A program made the translations under genes and the position numbers. Positions 27,926 to 36,801 of a stretch of DNA of 64,000 nt are shown here, in pieces; position 1 is the first letter of the stretch, and each line of letters starts with the position of its first letter. The notes under the pieces are model-generated. The model ran no database searches. It saw nothing but the letters and a program-made list of their open reading frames with translations, and was not told the origin of the DNA. This DNA comes from an uncultured Spirochaetota bacterium (GTDB lineage: Bacteria; Spirochaetota; Spirochaetia; SZUA-6; CAVTHK01): positions 320,001-384,000 of the forward strand of contig CAVTHK010000003.1 of NCBI GenBank assembly GCA_963734495.1. The letters are read 5' to 3'.

Positions 27926-29499
27926 CTACTTGCGCAGGTAGGCGAGCTTCGCGGGAAGCGGCAGGTTGTTCCCGAAGTCGTCTTCGCCGTAGCCGCTTTC
28001 GGCCAGCAGCTTGATGTCCTCGAGCACCCTGCGGTCCCCGTAGAAGGACACCGTCACGTCCATCTCCATGTCGATCTTGCCGATCGCCAGAAGCTGGGTG
28101 AGGGCCCGCGTCACGAACTCCGGCCGCGTCTCGTCCTCGCGCATCGAGACGTCCTCGAGCGTGAGGTTCCGCTCGTAGAGCACGATCTTGTTGCGCGTGA
28201 ACATCTCGTGCGCGACCTCGCGGACGAAAGCGGCCGGGTCCTCGTCCGGGCTGTCGTTCAGGTTGCAGCGGTAGACCTCGAGAGCGAGGAGCCTGCGCTT
28301 GACCGCGCTGATCTTCTCGTTGGCGCGGAACAGGTCGAGGGTGAACCCCGCGTTGTAGGTCTCCTTTTCCAGCTTCATCGCCACGTCGCTGCCGTAGTGG
28401 GCGACGATCTTGGCGACCATCGTCGAAGGCCGCACGTGGAAGCCCCGGTAGCGCGGCACCGGCACGGTGACGTGCCCCTGGATGGCGTAGCGGCGCAGCA
28501 TCTCGTGGCAGAGGCCGCGGGTCGTGAGCATGTAGCGGCTGGCGAACGCGAGGGAGTAGCTCATCAGCACGCCGAGGACCTCGGTGGGGTCGACGATCGG
28601 TCCGTCGGCCGCGGCGCCCGGGCCCGGGCTCTGCGGGTCGCCGCCAGGGCCCCTGCGCGACGCGAAGCTCAGGATGTGGCGCTCGCAGTAGTGGGCGAGG
28701 GCCGTCGCGGTCTCGAGCAGGTGATAGATGACCGAGACGTGGCCCCGCAGCACCGGGAGGTCGGCGTCGAGGCTCTCGACGTTGGTCTCGGAGATGTGGG
28801 TGTCGTACAGGGACTGCAGGTTGTGGAACCGCTGCTCGAGATCGCGCAGGCGCGCTTCGTTGATCGGTTCGGGGATCCAGTCCGCGTAGTGGTCCGGTTT
28901 CTCCTGCTGCGTGACGTGGATGAACTTGCCGTCCTCGGCGAGGTTCAGAAAGGCGGTGGCGACGCGCGTCGACGGTCTCCTCGGGCGAGGCGGCTTTCTC
29001 GCTGGTGCGGTCGGCCGGGAGATGACCCCGCGCGAGCGTCTCGACGTAGGCGTCCCCGGGGCCGCCCTCCTCGCGCAGCGTCAGGCCGAGGCCGCCGGCC
29101 GCGGCGATGAGCGCCTCGAGGCTGCGCCGCAGGATGCCGCAGACGACCTCGAGGGCCTGCGGTCGTGGCCGCCGGGAAGTCCCGCTCCACCGGCAGCAGC
29201 CGGTAGGCGGGCAGGAACAGCAGGATGTGCTGGAGCTGGTAGGCCACGCCCGAGAACAGCTTGATCGTCGCGGTCAGACGGCGCAGCGGGTACCAGCGCC
29301 TGTTGCGGCCCGCGCCGTACACGTCGAGGATCTCTTCGAGCTCGCTGGCGGCGCCCAGCATCCCGTGGAGCAGGGGGCGCGTGAAGCAGGCCGCCCCGCT
29401 CGTCGCTGCCGCACACCGCGGCGGCGCTGGCCGAGAAGCTCGCCGGTGCAGCCCCCGACCACCGCTCAGAAGACGTTCCTCGGGCAGGAGGGAATCCAT
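27926..29499 (-). CDS. Large (~520 aa) protein with a C-terminal HPr-like phosphocarrier domain, frameshifted
   Basis: VTVPVPRYRGFHVRPSTMVAKIVAHYGSDV resembles the HPr GLHARP motif; upstream TTGCCG-N17-TACTCT promoter at 29515-29543. Confidence 0.7.
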
Positions 29500-29581: not shown

Positions 29582-30639
29582 CTACCGCGCCCGGCTCAGC
29601 CGATCCGACGGCCTTCCGCTCCCGGTCGGAGACGAAGCTCGCGTCGAGGTAGCGCTGCACCTTGAGGCCGTTGGCAAAGTCGCTCTCGTCGTCGCGGCGC
29701 GTCGCGGATCGCCTTGACGAAGCGCTGGTAGTTCGAAGGCGTGGGCTCGGCCTCGATGGTCTCCCACTCCCGGGCGGCGATCGTGTAGAGGTAGCAGGCG
29801 GTCTGGGAGCGGTCGAAGTCGACCTCGATCGTCCCCTTGTCGCCGTAGACCCTGATGAACTCGCGGTTGACGTATGCCGGAGCCCACCGCGTCGAGTGGA
29901 TGGTCCCGATCACGCCGGAGGCGAAGGTCACCGTCGCGACCATGCTGTCGTTCGCGTCGAGGACGTACTCGCCGATGCGGTTCCCGGGCACGCCCTTGTC
30001 GTAGGTCTCGAGCCGGCAGTACAGCTCGGCGATGTCGCCGCAGAGGAAGGCGGCCATGTCGTAGATGTGGCAGCCCAGGTCGCCGAGCACGCCCTGGCTG
30101 CCGTGGCGGGTGGAGAGGCGCCAGGTCAGGCGCGGGTTGTTCCGCCAGTCGCCCCAGTCGGATGCGGCGAGCCAGCTCTGCAGGTAGCTCGCCTCCATGT
30201 GCCGGATCGCGCCGATGCGCCCGAGCCGGATCAGGTCGCGCGCCTTCTGCAGGCCCGACGCGTTGCGCTTGGAGTAGTTGACCATCGCCGACGACGCCCG
30301 CCTTCTGCCAGGCCGCGACCATGCGCTCCGCGTCGGCGAGCGTCGAGGCCATGGGCTTCTCGCAGAGCACGGGCACGCCTGCGGCGAGCGCCTCGATCGC
30401 GGCCTCGGCGTGGGCCCTGTCGGGCGTGACGATGGACACGCCGTCGAGCTTCTCCTTTGCCAGCATCTCCCGGTAGTCGGCGTAGCGGCGCGGGATCTTC
30501 GTGCGCGTCGCAGAACGCGGACAGGTTCTCCGGCGGAGATGTCGCTGCCCGCGACCACGCTCACGCCCTTCATCTCCTGATAGGCCTTGACGTGGGTCTT
30601 CGCCATGGATCCGGTGCCGATGATGCCGAGCTTGAGCAC
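29582..30639 (-). CDS. Gfo/Idh/MocA-family oxidoreductase, frameshifted
   Basis: LGIIGTG, VLCEKPMA and GVLGDLGCHIYD. Confidence 0.85.
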
Positions 30640-30655: not shown

Positions 30656-30977
30656 CTAGGAGCCGCAGCAGCCGCCCTGCGGAGCGGAGTTGCCGCAGGC
30701 GCGCAGGAACCGCAGTCCGGCTGCCGCGCAGCCAGCTCCCGACCACGGCCGCCGCGCAGCCGACGCCCGCCTGCACGCTGATGGCGCCGGCGCTGCAGTT
30801 GCGCGCGCAGGCGCCGCACTCGATGCAGGCGTCGCGGTCCACGATGGCGACGCGCTTCGCTGCGCGCGCGAGCACCGCGCGCGGACAGACCTCGAGGCAG
30901 CGCAGGCAGCCGGTGCAGCGCTCCTCGTCCAGGGCGAGGGTCACGACGTTGCGCAGGTACCTCACGGCCGCGCTCAC
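30656..30977 (-). CDS. hgcB: Mercury methylation 2[4Fe-4S] ferredoxin HgcB (tail frameshifted)
   Basis: RYLRNVVTLALD, CTGCLRCLEVCP, CIECGACARNC, GVGCAAA and terminal GGCCGS-stop in an adjacent frame; GTGA overlap with hgcA. Confidence 0.88.
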
Positions 30978-32021
30978 AGGCTCACCCCCCAGGTGCGGAT
31001 CTTCTGCGCGATCACGAGCGCCGCAACGGCGAGCGCGGCCGCCGCGTACAGCGGCACCGCGACTCTCAGCTCGCGTTGAACGCCGGAGATATTGGTGAAG
31101 GTGGATGCGCCCGTAAAGGCGAGCGCGAGCGCCGAGGCGACCGCCGGCACGAGGACGAGCGCCGTCGCGGCGGCGAGGCGCGGTCTCGCGCAGCGCCGGC
31201 AGCGCGAGGAGCGCCGCGGCCGCGACCGCCAGGCCGACGAGGGCGCCCTTGACCGCGAAGGCGCGTCCCGGAACCAGCGGCAGCAGCAGCGGCGTGAGGA
31301 ACGAGCCGGACACGACGGCGAGCGCGCCGAGCAGCGGCCAGGGGCCAGCCCGTCACGAGCGCGCGCGCGAAGAGGATCCCCTGCGGCGCGAGCCCGAAGA
31401 CAACGAGGACGCCGAGGACGAAGAGGAGCAGCCTGGGCAGCGCCGGGACCAGCTCCATCGGGATCAGGGCCAGCCGGTCGGACGAGCGCGAAGCGCACCT
31501 CGCGCACCGACGCGGGAACGCGGCCGCCCGCGTCGAGCGCCTCGGGCAGGTCCGCCGCGCGCACCGGGCCGTAGCTCACGCGGAAGCCGGTGCCCGGCCT
31601 CCACCACGTGCGCGCTCACGCCGGGCGCGCCGAGCTGCGGCAGGATCACGCGGCGGTGGTCGACGAGGCCTTCGAGGCCGCGCCTCCCGGATGCGCGCTA
31701 TGAGCTCCGCGGTGCCGAACGTGCCCTTCCCCGCGGCGCACCAGACGTTGATGCCCTTCGTGTCGAGCACGAGGATCCACGCGTCCCGCCCGGCCAGCGA
31801 GCGTCCGCAGGTGGTCGAAGCTCAGCTTGTAGTTGGCGGTGACGAGCACCGGCGAATCGCGTCCCGCCGCGCCCAGGCGATAGAGGCCGGGCGCCACGGC
31901 GTAGCGCATCCGGAACCGGTTGCTCAGGCGGCAGAGAAGCCGGCCGCGCGTGTCTCCGGGCCGACCACTGGCTGTCGGCCTCGCGGACGCTGCTGCGGCC
32001 GCGCAGCAGCTTTCAGGCCAT
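30974..32021 (-). CDS. hgcA: Mercury methylation corrinoid protein HgcA, multiple frameshifts
   Basis: PGLY, PVLVTANYKLSFD, cap helix GINVWCAAGKGTFG, ILPQLGAPGV, YGPVRAADLP, transmembrane region and FTGASTFT..SGVQRE. Confidence 0.92.
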
Positions 32022-32043
32022 TTCGAGCGCTCCCTCGGCGGCG

Positions 32044-32072
32044 ATGGTAGCCGGGACGAGGCAGGAGCGCAA
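32044..32072 (-). promoter_or_regulatory. Putative hgcA promoter TTGCGC-N17-TACCAT
   Basis: 17-nt spacing; followed by GAGGGAG RBS and ATG 32021. Confidence 0.5.
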
Positions 32073-32123
32073 CCGGCCGGACGTGCGATACTACGGGCGT
32101 GACCGACGAGGGAGGCGGCGGCG

Positions 32124-33069
32124 GTGAGCTCGTACGACATCGCGATGATCGGGCATGTGTCGCGCGACATCATGGTCTATCCCGGCGGGCCGCGAGGAAC
32201 GGCTGCTCGGCGGAGCGGTCGTCTACTCTTCGGCGGCCGCGGCCCGCTCGGGGGCGCGGGTCCTCGTGATCACCAAGGCGGCCAGGGAGGACCTGCCGCT
32301 GCTCGGCCCTCTGGAGCACGAGCGGGTCGAGGTCGTCGCGATCGACTCCCCGCCGCACGACCTCGATCCGCAACGTCTACCTCTCGGAGGACCGCGAGCG
32401 GCGCGAGGTGTCGCTCGTCGCGGGCGCGGAGCCGTTCGCCGTCGGGGAGCTGCCGGCCTTCGAGGCCGGGATCCTTCACCTGGCCGGTCTCTTTCACGGC
32501 GAGATCCCGCCGGCCGCTCGATCCCGGCGCTCGCACCGCGCTACCCGCTCGCCGTCGATGCGCAGGGCTGGCTGCGGCGGGTCGAAGGCGGGCGGATGGT
32601 CTTTCGCGACCTGGAGGGCAAGGAGGCGCTGCTTCCGCTCGTCCGCTACCTCAAGACGGACCTCGCCGAGGCGGAGATCCTCACCGGCGAGACCGACCAG
32701 GAGCGGGCGGCCCGGGCGCTGCACGCGATGGGGCCGGCGAGCGTCATGGTGACGCACGGGAGCGGCGTGATGGTCGTGGAGGGCGGCCGGCTCTACCGCG
32801 CGCCTTTCACGTCACGCAACCTCTCGGGGAGGACAGGCCGCGGCGACACCTGCTTCGCCTCGTACCTCGTCCGGCGGCTCTCGCACGATCCGCAGGAGTC
32901 GATTAGCTATGCCGCCGCGCTCACGAGCATCAAGATGGAGACCCCCGGGGTGTTCCGCGGCACGGTGGAGGACGTCCTCGCCCGCATGCGGGAAGGGCTG
33001 AGCAGCGCCGATCGCGCCCGCCGTGCGGCTACCCCGGACCCGGCGCGGCAGCGGTTTGACGGCCCGTGA
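32124..33069 (+). CDS. PfkB-family carbohydrate/nucleoside kinase, frameshifted
   Basis: IGHVSRD, LGGAVVYS, DAQG and RTGRGDTCF anion-hole motif. Confidence 0.8.
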
Positions 33070-33107
33070 CGCAGCCTGTACCTTGGGCTCACGCGTGAGG
33101 GGTGCTC

Positions 33108-35525
33108 ATGGAGCCGCAACCCGACACGAAGCGTAAAGCGGTGGCGTCGGACCGGGCCCAGGGCCGAGCCGTGGGCCGTTCCGTGCCGCGGACCGACGGA
33201 CCCGACAAGGTGCACGGCCGCACGCGCTTTACGGCCGACCTGCGCATCCCCGGCCTGCTGCACGCCGCGCTCGTGACCAGCGCGCACGCCCACGGCTCGA
33301 TCGCGGCGGTGCACACCGCGGAGGCTGCCGCGGCGCCCGGCGTGCGCGGCGTCTTCACCGGCGCGGACTTTCCCATACGGATCGGGCTCTACCTCGGCGA
33401 CAAGCCTCCTCTCGCGCGCGCGGTGGTCCGCTACTTCGGCGAGCCCGTCGGCAGCCGTGGTGGCCGACGACGAGGCCGCCGCGGTCGAAGCCGCTTCGCT
33501 CGTCCGCGTCGAGATCCGTCCGCTGCCCGTCGTCCGCACTCCCAGAGAGGCGCTGGCGCCCGGCGCGCCCATCCTCCACCCCGAAGATGGCGCAGTACGA
33601 GCACATCCCGGCGATCCTCCCCGAGCCGGGCACGAACGTCGGCAACCGGACCAGGATCCGCAAGGGCGACGCCGAGCGGGCCTTTGGCGAAGCCGACGTC
33701 ACGGTCGAAAGTGAAGTCGAGTTCCCGCCCGGGCGACCACGTGGCCATGGAGCCGCGCGTGGCGATCGCCGAGGTCAGGCCCGACGGCGCCGTCATCATC
33801 CATTCCTCGACGCAGTCGCCCTACAACGTCCGCATCATCATGAGCCGCACCTTCGGCATCCCGCCGGGAAAGATCACCGTCGTCGCCCCCGCGGTGGGCG
33901 GCGGATTCGGCGGCAAGGCGGGAATCCAGCTCGAGCCGCTCGCCTACCTGTTGTCGAAGGCGGTCGGCGGAAGACCCGTGCGCGTTGCCAACACCCGCGA
34001 GCAGGACCTGGTGAGCTCGCCGGGGCGGCCCGGGCTGCAGGCGCGCGTGCGGCTCGGGGCCCGGAGCGACGGACGGATCATCGCCGCCGACATCGAGTTC
34101 CTCTTCGATTCAGGCGGCTACGCCGACTACGCGGTCAACGTGAGCCGCGCCGCGGGCTACTCCTGCACCGGGCCGTACGCGATCGCGAACGTCAAGGCCG
34201 ACTCGCTCTCGGTCTACACGAACCATCCTTTCGCGACCGCCTACCGCGGCTTCGGCCACATCGAGATGAGCTTCGCGGTCGAGCGCGCCATGGACCTGCT
34301 GGCCGACCGCCTCGGCATGGACCCGGTCGAGCTCCGCGCGCTGAACGCGATCCGCGCGGGGGACACGACACCGACGCAGTCGGTGCTCGACGAGAGCACC
34401 GGCGACCTCAGGGAGTGCCTGCGCTTGGCAGCCGAGGGCGTCGACTGGAGCGCGGGCCCGCGCGCCCGGGTTGACGAGCACCGGGTCCGCGCCAAGGGCG
34501 TGAGCTGCTTCTGGAAGGCGCCCGCCATCCCGACCTTCACGGACGCGGGCGCGGTGGTGACCTTTAACGAGGACGGGAGCGTCAACCTGATCACGGGCGC
34601 GGTGGAGATCGGGCAGGGGACGCACACCGGCCTGGCGCAGATCGTGGCGGAGCGTCTCGCGATCGACCCCTCGATGGTGCACGTGGTCGCCGAGGTGATG
34701 ACCGACCGCTCCGCGCACGACTGGACCACGGCGGCGAGCCGCACGCTGTTCATGTGCGGGCGCGCCGCCCTCGCTGCGATCGACGACGCCGTCGCGCAGA
34801 TCCGCCGCGTGGCCTCCGCGCCGCTGCGCTGCCCCGAGGAGGACCTCGAGGTGGGCGGCAACCGCGTCTATCTGCGCGACGATCCGGGCCGCGGCCTCGC
34901 CCTCCCCGAGGTCGTCATGGGCTACGTCTACCCGAACGGCAACACCGTGGGCGGGCCCGTCATCGGCCGCGGCCGGTACGTCGCCCGCCACCTGAGCGGG
35001 CTCGATCCCGAGACGGGGGAGGGGAGGCCGGGCCTGGAGTGGACTCTCGGCGCCGAGGCCGTGGAGGTCGAGGTCGACCTGCGGGACGGCAGCTATCGCG
35101 TTCTGAGGAGCGCGTGCGCGATGGACGTCGGCCGGGTGATCAACCCGGCCCTCGCCCGCGGCCAGATCGTGGGCGCCATGGCCATGGGGATCGGCTACAC
35201 CACGCGGGAGGCCTTTGTTTTTGGACAAGGCGAGCGCGTGCTCAACGGAAAGCTCCGCGACTACAAGATCCTCCGCTACGGCGAGCATCCCGAATACATC
35301 GTGCGCTTCGTCGAGACGCCCCAGAGGGACGGGCCGTTCGGCGCGCGGGGCCTCGGCGAGCAGGGGATCGTCGGCATGCCGGGCGCGCTGGCAGGGGCGT
35401 TCTCGCGGGCGGTGGAGCGGCACCTCACGCGGCTGCCCATCACGCCGGAGGCGCTGTGGCGGGCGCGCGCGCAGCCTATGGGTGCAGCGCCGACCGGGGA
35501 CACTCCGGAAGGGGGGAACCCGTGA
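33108..35525 (+). CDS. Xanthine dehydrogenase-family molybdopterin-binding subunit (compensating frameshifts at about 33450-33730)
   Basis: GGGFGGKA, AYRGFG, EIGQGTHT, INP..GQ..G and GARGLGE. Confidence 0.9.
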   Translation: MEPQPDTKRKAVASDRAQGRAVGRSVPRTDGPDKVHGRTRFTADLRIPGLLHAALVTSAHAHGSIAAVHTAEAAAAPGVRGVFTGADFPIRIGLYLGDKPPLARAVVRYFGEPVGSRGGRRRGRRGRSRFARPRRDPSAARRPHSQRGAGARRAHPPPRRWRSTSTSRRSSPSRARTSATGPGSARATPSGPLAKPTSRSKVKSSSRPGDHVAMEPRVAIAEVRPDGAVIIHSSTQSPYNVRIIMSRTFGIPPGKITVVAPAVGGGFGGKAGIQLEPLAYLLSKAVGGRPVRVANTREQDLVSSPGRPGLQARVRLGARSDGRIIAADIEFLFDSGGYADYAVNVSRAAGYSCTGPYAIANVKADSLSVYTNHPFATAYRGFGHIEMSFAVERAMDLLADRLGMDPVELRALNAIRAGDTTPTQSVLDESTGDLRECLRLAAEGVDWSAGPRARVDEHRVRAKGVSCFWKAPAIPTFTDAGAVVTFNEDGSVNLITGAVEIGQGTHTGLAQIVAERLAIDPSMVHVVAEVMTDRSAHDWTTAASRTLFMCGRAALAAIDDAVAQIRRVASAPLRCPEEDLEVGGNRVYLRDDPGRGLALPEVVMGYVYPNGNTVGGPVIGRGRYVARHLSGLDPETGEGRPGLEWTLGAEAVEVEVDLRDGSYRVLRSACAMDVGRVINPALARGQIVGAMAMGIGYTTREAFVFGQGERVLNGKLRDYKILRYGEHPEYIVRFVETPQRDGPFGARGLGEQGIVGMPGALAGAFSRAVERHLTRLPITPEALWRARAQPMGAAPTGDTPEGGNP

Positions 35526-36328
35526 TCCCCTACGACGTCGCCTACTACCGGCCCGACACGCTGCCCGAGGCGCTCGAGGCGTTCAGGCAGGCGGCCGCCG
35601 AAGGGCTTGCGCCCGCGTGGCTCGGCGGCGGCACCGAGATCGTGACGATGGCGCGCGACGGGAAGCTGCGTCCGGGCGCTCTCATCGACCTCAAGGGGGT
35701 GCCCGAGTGCGCGGGCATCGAGGAGCTCGACGGGCACCTGCGCTTCGGCGCCTGCCTCACGCTGAACGAGGCGGCGGACCAGGCGCGCTTCCCGCTGCTC
35801 GCGGCGGCGGCATCGGGAGTCGCGGACCACACCGTGCGCAACAGCATCACTCTCGGAGGAAACATCGCGGGAAGGCTTCCCTACCGCGAAGCTGTTCTGC
35901 CCTTCCTCCTGTGTGACACGGTCGCGGAGATCGCCGGCGCCGAGGGCGGGCGCGAGGTTCCGCTCGCGAAGCTCTTCGAGAAGCGGCTGCGCCTTGCAGC
36001 CGGCGAGGCGCTCGTGGCGCTGCGCGTGCCCGTGGCCGCGGCGTCGCTGCCCCACGCGTACGCCCGGCGCACGAAGGACTCTCGCGTCGATTACCCGCTG
36101 CTCACCGCGTGCTTCGTCCGCGACGGCCGGACGCTCCGTGTCGCGGTCAGCGGGCTGGGCGACTACCCGGCGAAGCTCCCCGACCGCGAGATGGGCCGCG
36201 GCGCGCCCGCAACGGACACCGCGGGCCTCGCGGCGCGGGCCGACATGCGCGCGTCCGCGGAGTACCGGGTGGCGCTCTTCCAGCGGGCGCTCGAGGAGGC
36301 TGCGGCGCGCCTCGAGGAGGCAAGGTGA
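35522..36328 (+). CDS. Xanthine dehydrogenase-family FAD-binding subunit
   Basis: YYRPDTLPEA, GGGTE and VRNSITLGGN; GTGA overlap. Confidence 0.88.
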   Translation: MIPYDVAYYRPDTLPEALEAFRQAAAEGLAPAWLGGGTEIVTMARDGKLRPGALIDLKGVPECAGIEELDGHLRFGACLTLNEAADQARFPLLAAAASGVADHTVRNSITLGGNIAGRLPYREAVLPFLLCDTVAEIAGAEGGREVPLAKLFEKRLRLAAGEALVALRVPVAAASLPHAYARRTKDSRVDYPLLTACFVRDGRTLRVAVSGLGDYPAKLPDREMGRGAPATDTAGLAARADMRASAEYRVALFQRALEEAAARLEEAR

Positions 36329-36801
36329 AGGTCTACCGCGGAATCACGCGCGTCACCCTGCGGGTCAACGGAGAGGAGCGGGGCGCAAACGTGCGGCCGG
36401 GCGACACGCTGCTGCGCACGCTGCGCGAGGGCCTCGGCCTCACGGGGACCAAGGCGGGCTGCGAGAATGGCGACTGCGGCGCCTGCACCGTGCTGCTCGA
36501 CGGACGGCCGGTCAAGAGCTGCCTGGTCCTCACGCTCTCCGCGATCGGGCGCGAGGTTACCACGATCGAAGGCCTCCGCGGCACGGCGCTCCAGCGCGCC
36601 TTCGTCGAGGAGAACGGGTTCCAGTGCGGCTTCTGCACTCCGGGCATCCTCATGAACGCGCACGCGCTTCTCGCGGCCGACCCGCGGCCGTCGCCCGAGG
36701 CGGCGCGCCTCTGGCTGGAGAGCAACCTCTGCCGCTGCACCGGCTACGAAGGGATCGAGCGCGCGGTCAGACGCGCATCGGGAGGCTCGACCGCCGACTG
36801 A
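36325..36801 (+). CDS. Xanthine dehydrogenase-family (2Fe-2S) subunit
   Basis: GCENGDCGAC, QCGFCTPG and NLCRCTGY. Confidence 0.92.
   Translation: MKVYRGITRVTLRVNGEERGANVRPGDTLLRTLREGLGLTGTKAGCENGDCGACTVLLDGRPVKSCLVLTLSAIGREVTTIEGLRGTALQRAFVEENGFQCGFCTPGILMNAHALLAADPRPSPEAARLWLESNLCRCTGYEGIERAVRRASGGSTAD

Follow-up and report, generated by a model that had tools for sequence, protein, structure and literature searches.

A canonical, probably intact hgcA–hgcB pair interrupted by likely assembly insertions in a putatively mercury-methylating spirochaete

The window analysed here (64,000 nucleotides, G000:C3:320001-384000, i.e., part of contig C3 of the genome under study, G000) carries on its minus strand what is very probably a canonical, intact hgcAB pair disrupted in the record by assembly insertion errors; with the breaks read in this way, one would expect the organism to be a mercury methylator. 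The genome amounts to 5.38 Mb in 18 contigs and is 83% complete, and its family is represented by two genomes only, G000 and a 99% complete congener, G001. The genes at the locus are as follows.

29596..30639, minus strand: Gfo/Idh/MocA oxidoreductase gene (Pfam PF22725/PF02894), at least 4 breaks
30977-30656, minus strand: hgcB, a 2x[4Fe-4S] ferredoxin (NF040864, 107.8 bits vs a cut-off of 99)
32021-30974, minus strand: hgcA, about 345 codons once the breaks are bridged, in at least 8 frame pieces
32030..32036, minus strand: hgcA ribosome-binding site GAGGGAG, 8 nt upstream of the ATG at 32021, read from the sequence
32022..32130, no strand: intergenic region between the divergent genes, which can be aligned loosely to the 124-nt pfkB-oxidoreductase spacer of the congener
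32124..33000, plus strand: gene for a PfkB-family carbohydrate kinase, oriented away from hgcA and with 3 breaks (the ortholog in the congener matches PF00294)

Six-frame translation and a motif scan of the minus strand recovered the hgcAB motifs where a preliminary description of this DNA had placed them, spread across three frames, so that, as it had also remarked, no single ORF holds hgcA. Its C-terminal transmembrane region is likewise there, and so is its overlapping ferredoxin with the cysteine motifs, the hgcA stop and the hgcB GTG start sharing 4 nt (GTGA, 30977-30974). All of the following lie on the minus strand and, except where indicated, come from the motif scan.

32003..32014: N-terminal Cys-Cys pair in ESCC, shifted by one frame relative to the ATG at 32021
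31840-31814: TANYKLSFD, corrinoid domain
31749-31726: cap helix NVWCAAGK, whose Cys (Cys93 in ND132) ligates cobalt
31643-31620: LPQLGAPG
31570-31556: GPVRA
30977..31480: membrane region of five hydrophobic 19-residue segments (Kyte-Doolittle scan, 5 segments >1.6)
31117-31094: FTGASTFT
30917-30885: first CxxCxxCxxxC of HgcB
30827-30795: second CxxCxxCxxxC, which begins CIECGA
30767-30756: GVGC
30673-30656: GGCCGS-stop, the C-terminal Cys pair, in frame only once a net +1 break is bridged

Six hgcA pieces matched the NCBIfam profile NF040863, following one another along it as expected and with E-values from 3e-20 to 5e-7, so that chance does not account for the matches. The membrane pieces cover profile positions 214-323, although one membrane piece taken alone gave no match. 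The six scores add up to about 279 bits against a cut-off of 275, a rough sum that is not valid as a whole-protein score, and no single frame can attain that cut-off. The expectation that annotation would miss the pair thus holds for hgcA as a whole protein, but not for HgcB, which as assembled scores 113.5 bits on NF040864 and is the sole above-cut-off match among 18 in the genome, nor entirely for the cap-helix piece, which by itself reaches 69-73 bits on NF040863 and has the high-stringency motif. PMC10087281 gives, in the part available to us, a list of six cap-helix forms together with high-stringency criteria for HgcA and HgcB, and the window HgcA and HgcB agree with both sets.

These matches could also be produced by an hgcA-like paralog, either fused HgcAB-like or related to CdhE/AcsC, that does not methylate mercury. 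Such paralogs exist in this order, their profiles NF043039 (HgcAB-like) and NF003195 (CdhE) match some of the pieces weakly, and the closest solved structures are CFeSP large subunits (PDB 2h9a, 4djd), in keeping with a homologous corrinoid-binding domain. However, NF040863 outscored NF043039 on every piece matched by both. The TGA at 30976-30974 separates hgcA from the ferredoxin, and a relative's contig from run X3 spans the junction (30930-31072) with no gap, whereas all nine fetched paralogs have the ferredoxin motifs in the same frame and eight of the nine lack a G-K-type cap motif (they have NVWCAS/SS/ST). With X placed at the breaks, the HgcA protein used for scoring and trees shares 55-57% of its residues with the best relatives. 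On a profile built here from 20 same-order HgcA it gave 418 bits, as opposed to 139-187 bits for 9 fused or HgcAB-like paralogs and 53-71 for 4 CdhE/AcsC proteins.

Phylogenetic placement, which the preliminary description had proposed as a check, gave the same picture. In two quick trees the window HgcA fell inside the true-HgcA clade (SH-aLRT 97 with 81 rows and 98 with 43 rows) and apart from the fused HgcAB-like and CdhE proteins; the 81-row tree took in the first 40 of 80 GTDB loci and drew a long-branch warning on its outgroups, and the 43-row tree used a mixture model. The sister of the window HgcA was the sequence from G044, weakly supported (93, 80) and sharing its unusual residue make-up, and in the 81-row tree the HgcA rows from Spirochaetota and Spirochaetaceae records grouped among the same-order genome rows, from which the organism would be a spirochaete. 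Taken together, these comparisons support the assignment of the window pair as a true hgcA–hgcB, and the paralog reading, largely refuted by them, retains hardly any probability. As for the paralogs themselves, those at L076-L084 (families f3, f6 and f8) have caps such as NVWCASTG, NVWCASMA and NVWCSSMA, among others; some are 470-490 aa long, and several genomes have one beside a true HgcA.

To place the breaks, we used a frameshift-aware alignment to 6 intact relatives, the approach that had been suggested together with the profile search. It gave seven core net +1 breaks in hgcA, near 31955, 31804, 31677, 31597, 31482, 31334 and 31178. All six relatives agreed on those near 31804, 31677, 31597, 31482, 31334 and 31180, and three of the six on that near 31955. 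Probably two further breaks fall in the poorly conserved first 40 nt (one relative of six). In hgcB, one net +1 break lies within 30741-30699, upstream of the CC tail, and was located near 30701 against 5/5 relatives; pairwise alignment with the metagenome locus L178 points to two events there, not one. A CC tail is present in the HgcB of 15 of 20 relatives.

The direction of these breaks is that of the assembly at large. When 340 candidate ORFs from 21 stretches of G001 were compared with G000, 90 aligned well at the DNA level, and 46 of these 90 genes were broken, with 102 '+1' vs 13 '-1' breaks in 112.7 kb of G000. At the protein level the count was 50 vs 5, in 32 of 142 orthologs, nusG included; what we take, by position, to be rplA and rplL are broken too. 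A codon-model scan found 195 +1 vs 45 -1 on C3, compared with 13 vs 19 at 11 held-out G001 loci. From the contig sizes and the indel pattern we infer that the assembly was made from long reads, whose indels are a described cause of frameshifts (10.1101/2021.08.23.457338, as far as its available text goes). The region 28.9-33.8 kb appears as a local error patch, with 5 breaks in a 519-aa orphan gene, 3 in the kinase gene, at least 4 in the oxidoreductase gene and 3 in a molybdo-enzyme gene; the ABC ATPase gene at 36.9 kb has none.

Independent sequence could be brought to bear on most of the core breaks. Six public runs carry a small share of the stretch (four aligned at 80%, three at 91%), and those with matching contigs are labelled peat and wetland metagenomes. 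Their contigs, about 92-94% alike and thus from relatives rather than from the source strain, lack one base at 31177 (X2), 31333/4 (X1, X2 and X4), 31482 (X2), and 31596 and 31676 (X4). Hence at 5/5 bridged sites, out of 7 core breaks and across three studies, the extra base is missing from close relatives, at the places that the alignment had set beforehand. A 577-nt X2 contig crosses three breaks and shows exactly three gaps. Apart from the missing bases, the indels listed came to a single pair that cancels out (31200/31206, in one X1 contig). No aligned contig bridges the breaks near 31804 and 31955 or the N-terminal ones.

The main competitor of this explanation is a real, young pseudogene, with hgcAB in this strain partway through a decay that the congener would have completed by losing the pair. 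The break density gives it some footing: hgcA has 7-9 breaks per 1.05 kb, whereas the genome as a whole has about 1.0 per kb. This is at or near the upper end of the genome range, a density of at least 6.7 per kb being seen in just 2 of 90 genes, and roughly double the mean of the flanks, 3.6 per kb (binomial p 0.13, 0.07 and 0.04 for 7, 8 and 9 hgcA breaks). In addition, no hgcA match was found in G001 at 99% completeness, and PMC10083202 argues, in its accessible portion, for widespread hgc loss. On the other hand, the core breaks here are all single-base gains in the direction of the assembly error bias, housekeeping genes are broken likewise, and hgcA shows no larger deletion, no in-frame stop within its pieces and no damage to its catalytic motifs. 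Bacterial pseudogenes generally decay mostly via deletion. Over 319 codons its GC3 is 0.95, host-like. Against the X2 contig, 14 codons differ synonymously and 14 non-synonymously (33 of 42 differences listed), a ratio that would indicate weak purifying selection only. Decay in this strain seems quite unlikely to us; the hgcAB breaks are most likely assembly insertion errors, and the genes are very probably intact in the source cell. That the preliminary description should have called this organism a putative Hg methylator appears fair on these grounds. Among the literature matches listed, no mercury paper combined 'hgcA' with 'frameshift'.

Two further mechanisms were considered and set aside. 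Programmed frameshifting would require at least 7 shifts in one gene, all in the direction of the assembly errors. A selenocysteine at codon 3, from read-through of its TGA, conflicts with the position of this TGA outside a PCUGP motif, with the hairpin behind it (z -1.28), and with the finding of no selA above cut-off and no tRNA-Sec among 55 tRNAs in the 83% complete genome. HgcA N-termini bearing CC and a selenocysteine (PCUGP) form are both described in the part of 10.1101/2022.07.06.499078 at hand; the HgcA N-terminus in the window reads best as the former rather than the latter, and since CC or CxC occurs in this region in 8 of 20 HgcA relatives, ESCC is likely the CC form of the motif. 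The congener does have selA (G001:C5:23447-24757), which was not found in G000.

Both flanks of hgcAB match a single congener contig, G001:C88, which lacks exactly this 1.4-kb block between the sugar-kinase and oxidoreductase genes: from the oxidoreductase start (window 30643) to the kinase start (window 32133) there are 132 nt in G001 and 1,489 nt in the window. Because the congener does without the pair, members of the genus can dispense with hgcAB. At this site in the congener, the oxidoreductase gene (L045:10268-10277) lacks about 600 nt internally, so that the locus without hgcAB also has a deletion next door. At 28 further pfkB loci from the order, with flanks of about 1.5 kb, neither the oxidoreductase gene nor hgcA adjoins. 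We saw no mobile-element ends at the hgcAB block: the 13 direct-repeat families and 25/31 inverted pairs checked include neither terminal repeats nor target duplications there.

Whether the pair was gained or lost can be approached through the trees. In the rpoB tree the family groups with f3/f4/f5; in the HgcA tree it goes with the f6 type, and the HgcA of f3/f4/f5 form another clade. AU tests, on groups named after the trees were seen, were split, rejecting sisterhood with f4 HgcA (p 2.5e-6) and not rejecting a grouping with all f3/f4/f5 HgcA rows (p 0.24). This discordance hints at a possible lateral gain of hgcAB in this lineage; both transfer and loss have been argued for hgc in the available text of PMC7438021 and PMC10083202. 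The oxidoreductase gene begins 16 nt downstream of the hgcB stop, a spacing from which it likely forms one transcript with hgcAB. No sigma-70 consensus was found in the divergent intergenic region (32022..32130), and a promoter and terminator scan of the locus found nothing. A tentative and rather doubtful scenario is that hgcAB arrived laterally as a bare, promoterless two-gene cassette and came to lie downstream of a divergent sugar-metabolism promoter, separating it from the oxidoreductase gene that it drives in the congener.

Other differences were noted around the locus. Downstream of the oxidoreductase gene, the minus-strand gene at window 27926-29480 encodes the 519-aa protein mentioned above, which has no Pfam/NCBIfam match, is 83% identical between the congeners and is intact in L045:8395-9954; its C-terminal part presumably resembles HPr. 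On the other side, genes for the large, medium and small subunits of a xanthine-dehydrogenase-family enzyme (window 33102-36801, plus strand) are missing between the kinase and ABC ATPase genes on the congener's syntenic contig.

Contig C3 is chimeric at its start. Its first 50 kb (1-50 kb) have a GC content of 0.41-0.45, a second, unrelated rpoB-rpoC and ribosomal-protein cluster and five tRNAs, which we take to be Bacteroidota-like; results from this piece belong to a different organism. The pair, even if intact, might thus be foreign to this genome, or else its main job might be other than mercury methylation, an arsenic-tied native role having been proposed for HgcAB (10.1101/2022.10.17.512643, in the part we could consult). 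As to a foreign origin, the window lies 270 kb away from the chimeric start, within the part of GC 0.66-0.72, its two flanks are syntenic with the congener, and the GC3 of hgcA is that of the host. Moreover, an X3 contig (30565-30698) joins hgcB to the oxidoreductase gene with 11 differences and no gap. As to another job, in the available part of PMC10087281 every tested non-fused hgcA carrier produced methylmercury. We consider it highly improbable that either holds. Elsewhere in the genome, a 50-kb contig end (G000:C9:375000-424061) has a GC content of 0.51-0.57 vs 0.68 for the genome, and is either an island or a second misjoin.

For a canonical pair, the chemistry would be that demonstrated in Pseudodesulfovibrio mercurii ND132 (PMC11588087, as far as available). 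The cobalamin in the HgcA cap helix would be reduced to Co(I) by the two [4Fe-4S] clusters of HgcB, receive a methyl group from SAM and hand this group on to Hg(II), probably aided by HgcB cysteines; hgcAB would be expressed together with the downstream oxidoreductase gene. The same source reports a requirement for Cys93 in HgcA and for Cys73/94/95 in HgcB in ND132, and the motifs matching them are present here (cap helix, CIECGA and CC tail). The window pair further resembles that of ND132 in having NVWCAAGK, a five-helix membrane domain, separate genes, and an HgcB with two CxxCxxCxxxC, C(I)ECGA, GVGC and a C-terminal CC. Unlike in ND132, no ArsR gene lies upstream, the neighbours being the PfkB kinase and Gfo/Idh/MocA oxidoreductase genes, and the HgcA N-terminus reads as a CC rather than a PCUGP form.

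Regarding cofactors, the genome has metK and six B12-binding domains above cut-off. No CobS match was found in the 83% complete genome, so the corrinoid may be salvaged. A PF03599 search of the genome found nothing. Cytochrome bd is present (subunit I, G000:C5:158100-159380), though not found in G001, and no match to a heme-copper oxidase turned up in G000, a combination that would fit an oxygen-tolerant anaerobe.

The nearest HgcA relatives are the f6 loci (L006, L011, L015, L089 and L090), 51-57% identical to the window HgcA over about 330 residues, and L178, which is 78% alike over a 50-residue piece and about 71% alike in DNA; on NF040863, L178 reaches 392 bits and L011 reaches 402. L178 was the best locus of a second metagenome scan, a scan with the membrane piece having returned no relative. 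Several of these relatives stand behind acr3, mostly with arsR, whereas the window hgcAB has no adjacent arsenic genes. Among same-order hgcA loci, acr3 lies within the 1.5-2 kb flank in 5 of 27, four of them with arsR, and arsR or acr3 is beside hgcA in 22 of 80 GTDB loci; ArsR genes adjoining hgcAB in Spirochaetes are also reported in the portion of 10.1101/2022.10.17.512643 available. In G000 we found no ArsR-linked hgcAB operon, the arsR/acr3 matches lying only on C11 and C9. The arsR and acr3 cluster on C11 (G000:C11:80000-83400) is unlinked to hgcAB, and presumably also includes a small thioredoxin-like gene divergent from arsR, a permease gene and an arsC-like gene.

The pair is already common in this order, where 30 of 61 sampled genomes passed the HgcA cut-off and 43 of 61 gave some match, one family being 0/13 for hgcA. 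Spirochaetota carriers are also already in print: hgcA-bearing Spirochaetes, including isolates, appear in PMC7438021, and further Spirochaetota hgcAB in PMC7536318 and PMC10087281, each as seen in part, and this lineage may already be among those in the Hg-MATE tables. The present locus adds one family (1/2 genomes) to the putative mercury methylators of the order. It also calls for caution in surveys, as indel-rich assemblies can conceal hgcA from whole-protein cut-offs. The clean presence and absence of hgcAB between congeners offers a small case for the pair's gain or loss and promoter use; if the tentative cassette scenario were true, mercury methylation in a widespread peat and wetland spirochaete would follow carbon supply rather than the ArsR/arsenic control found near related hgcAB operons.
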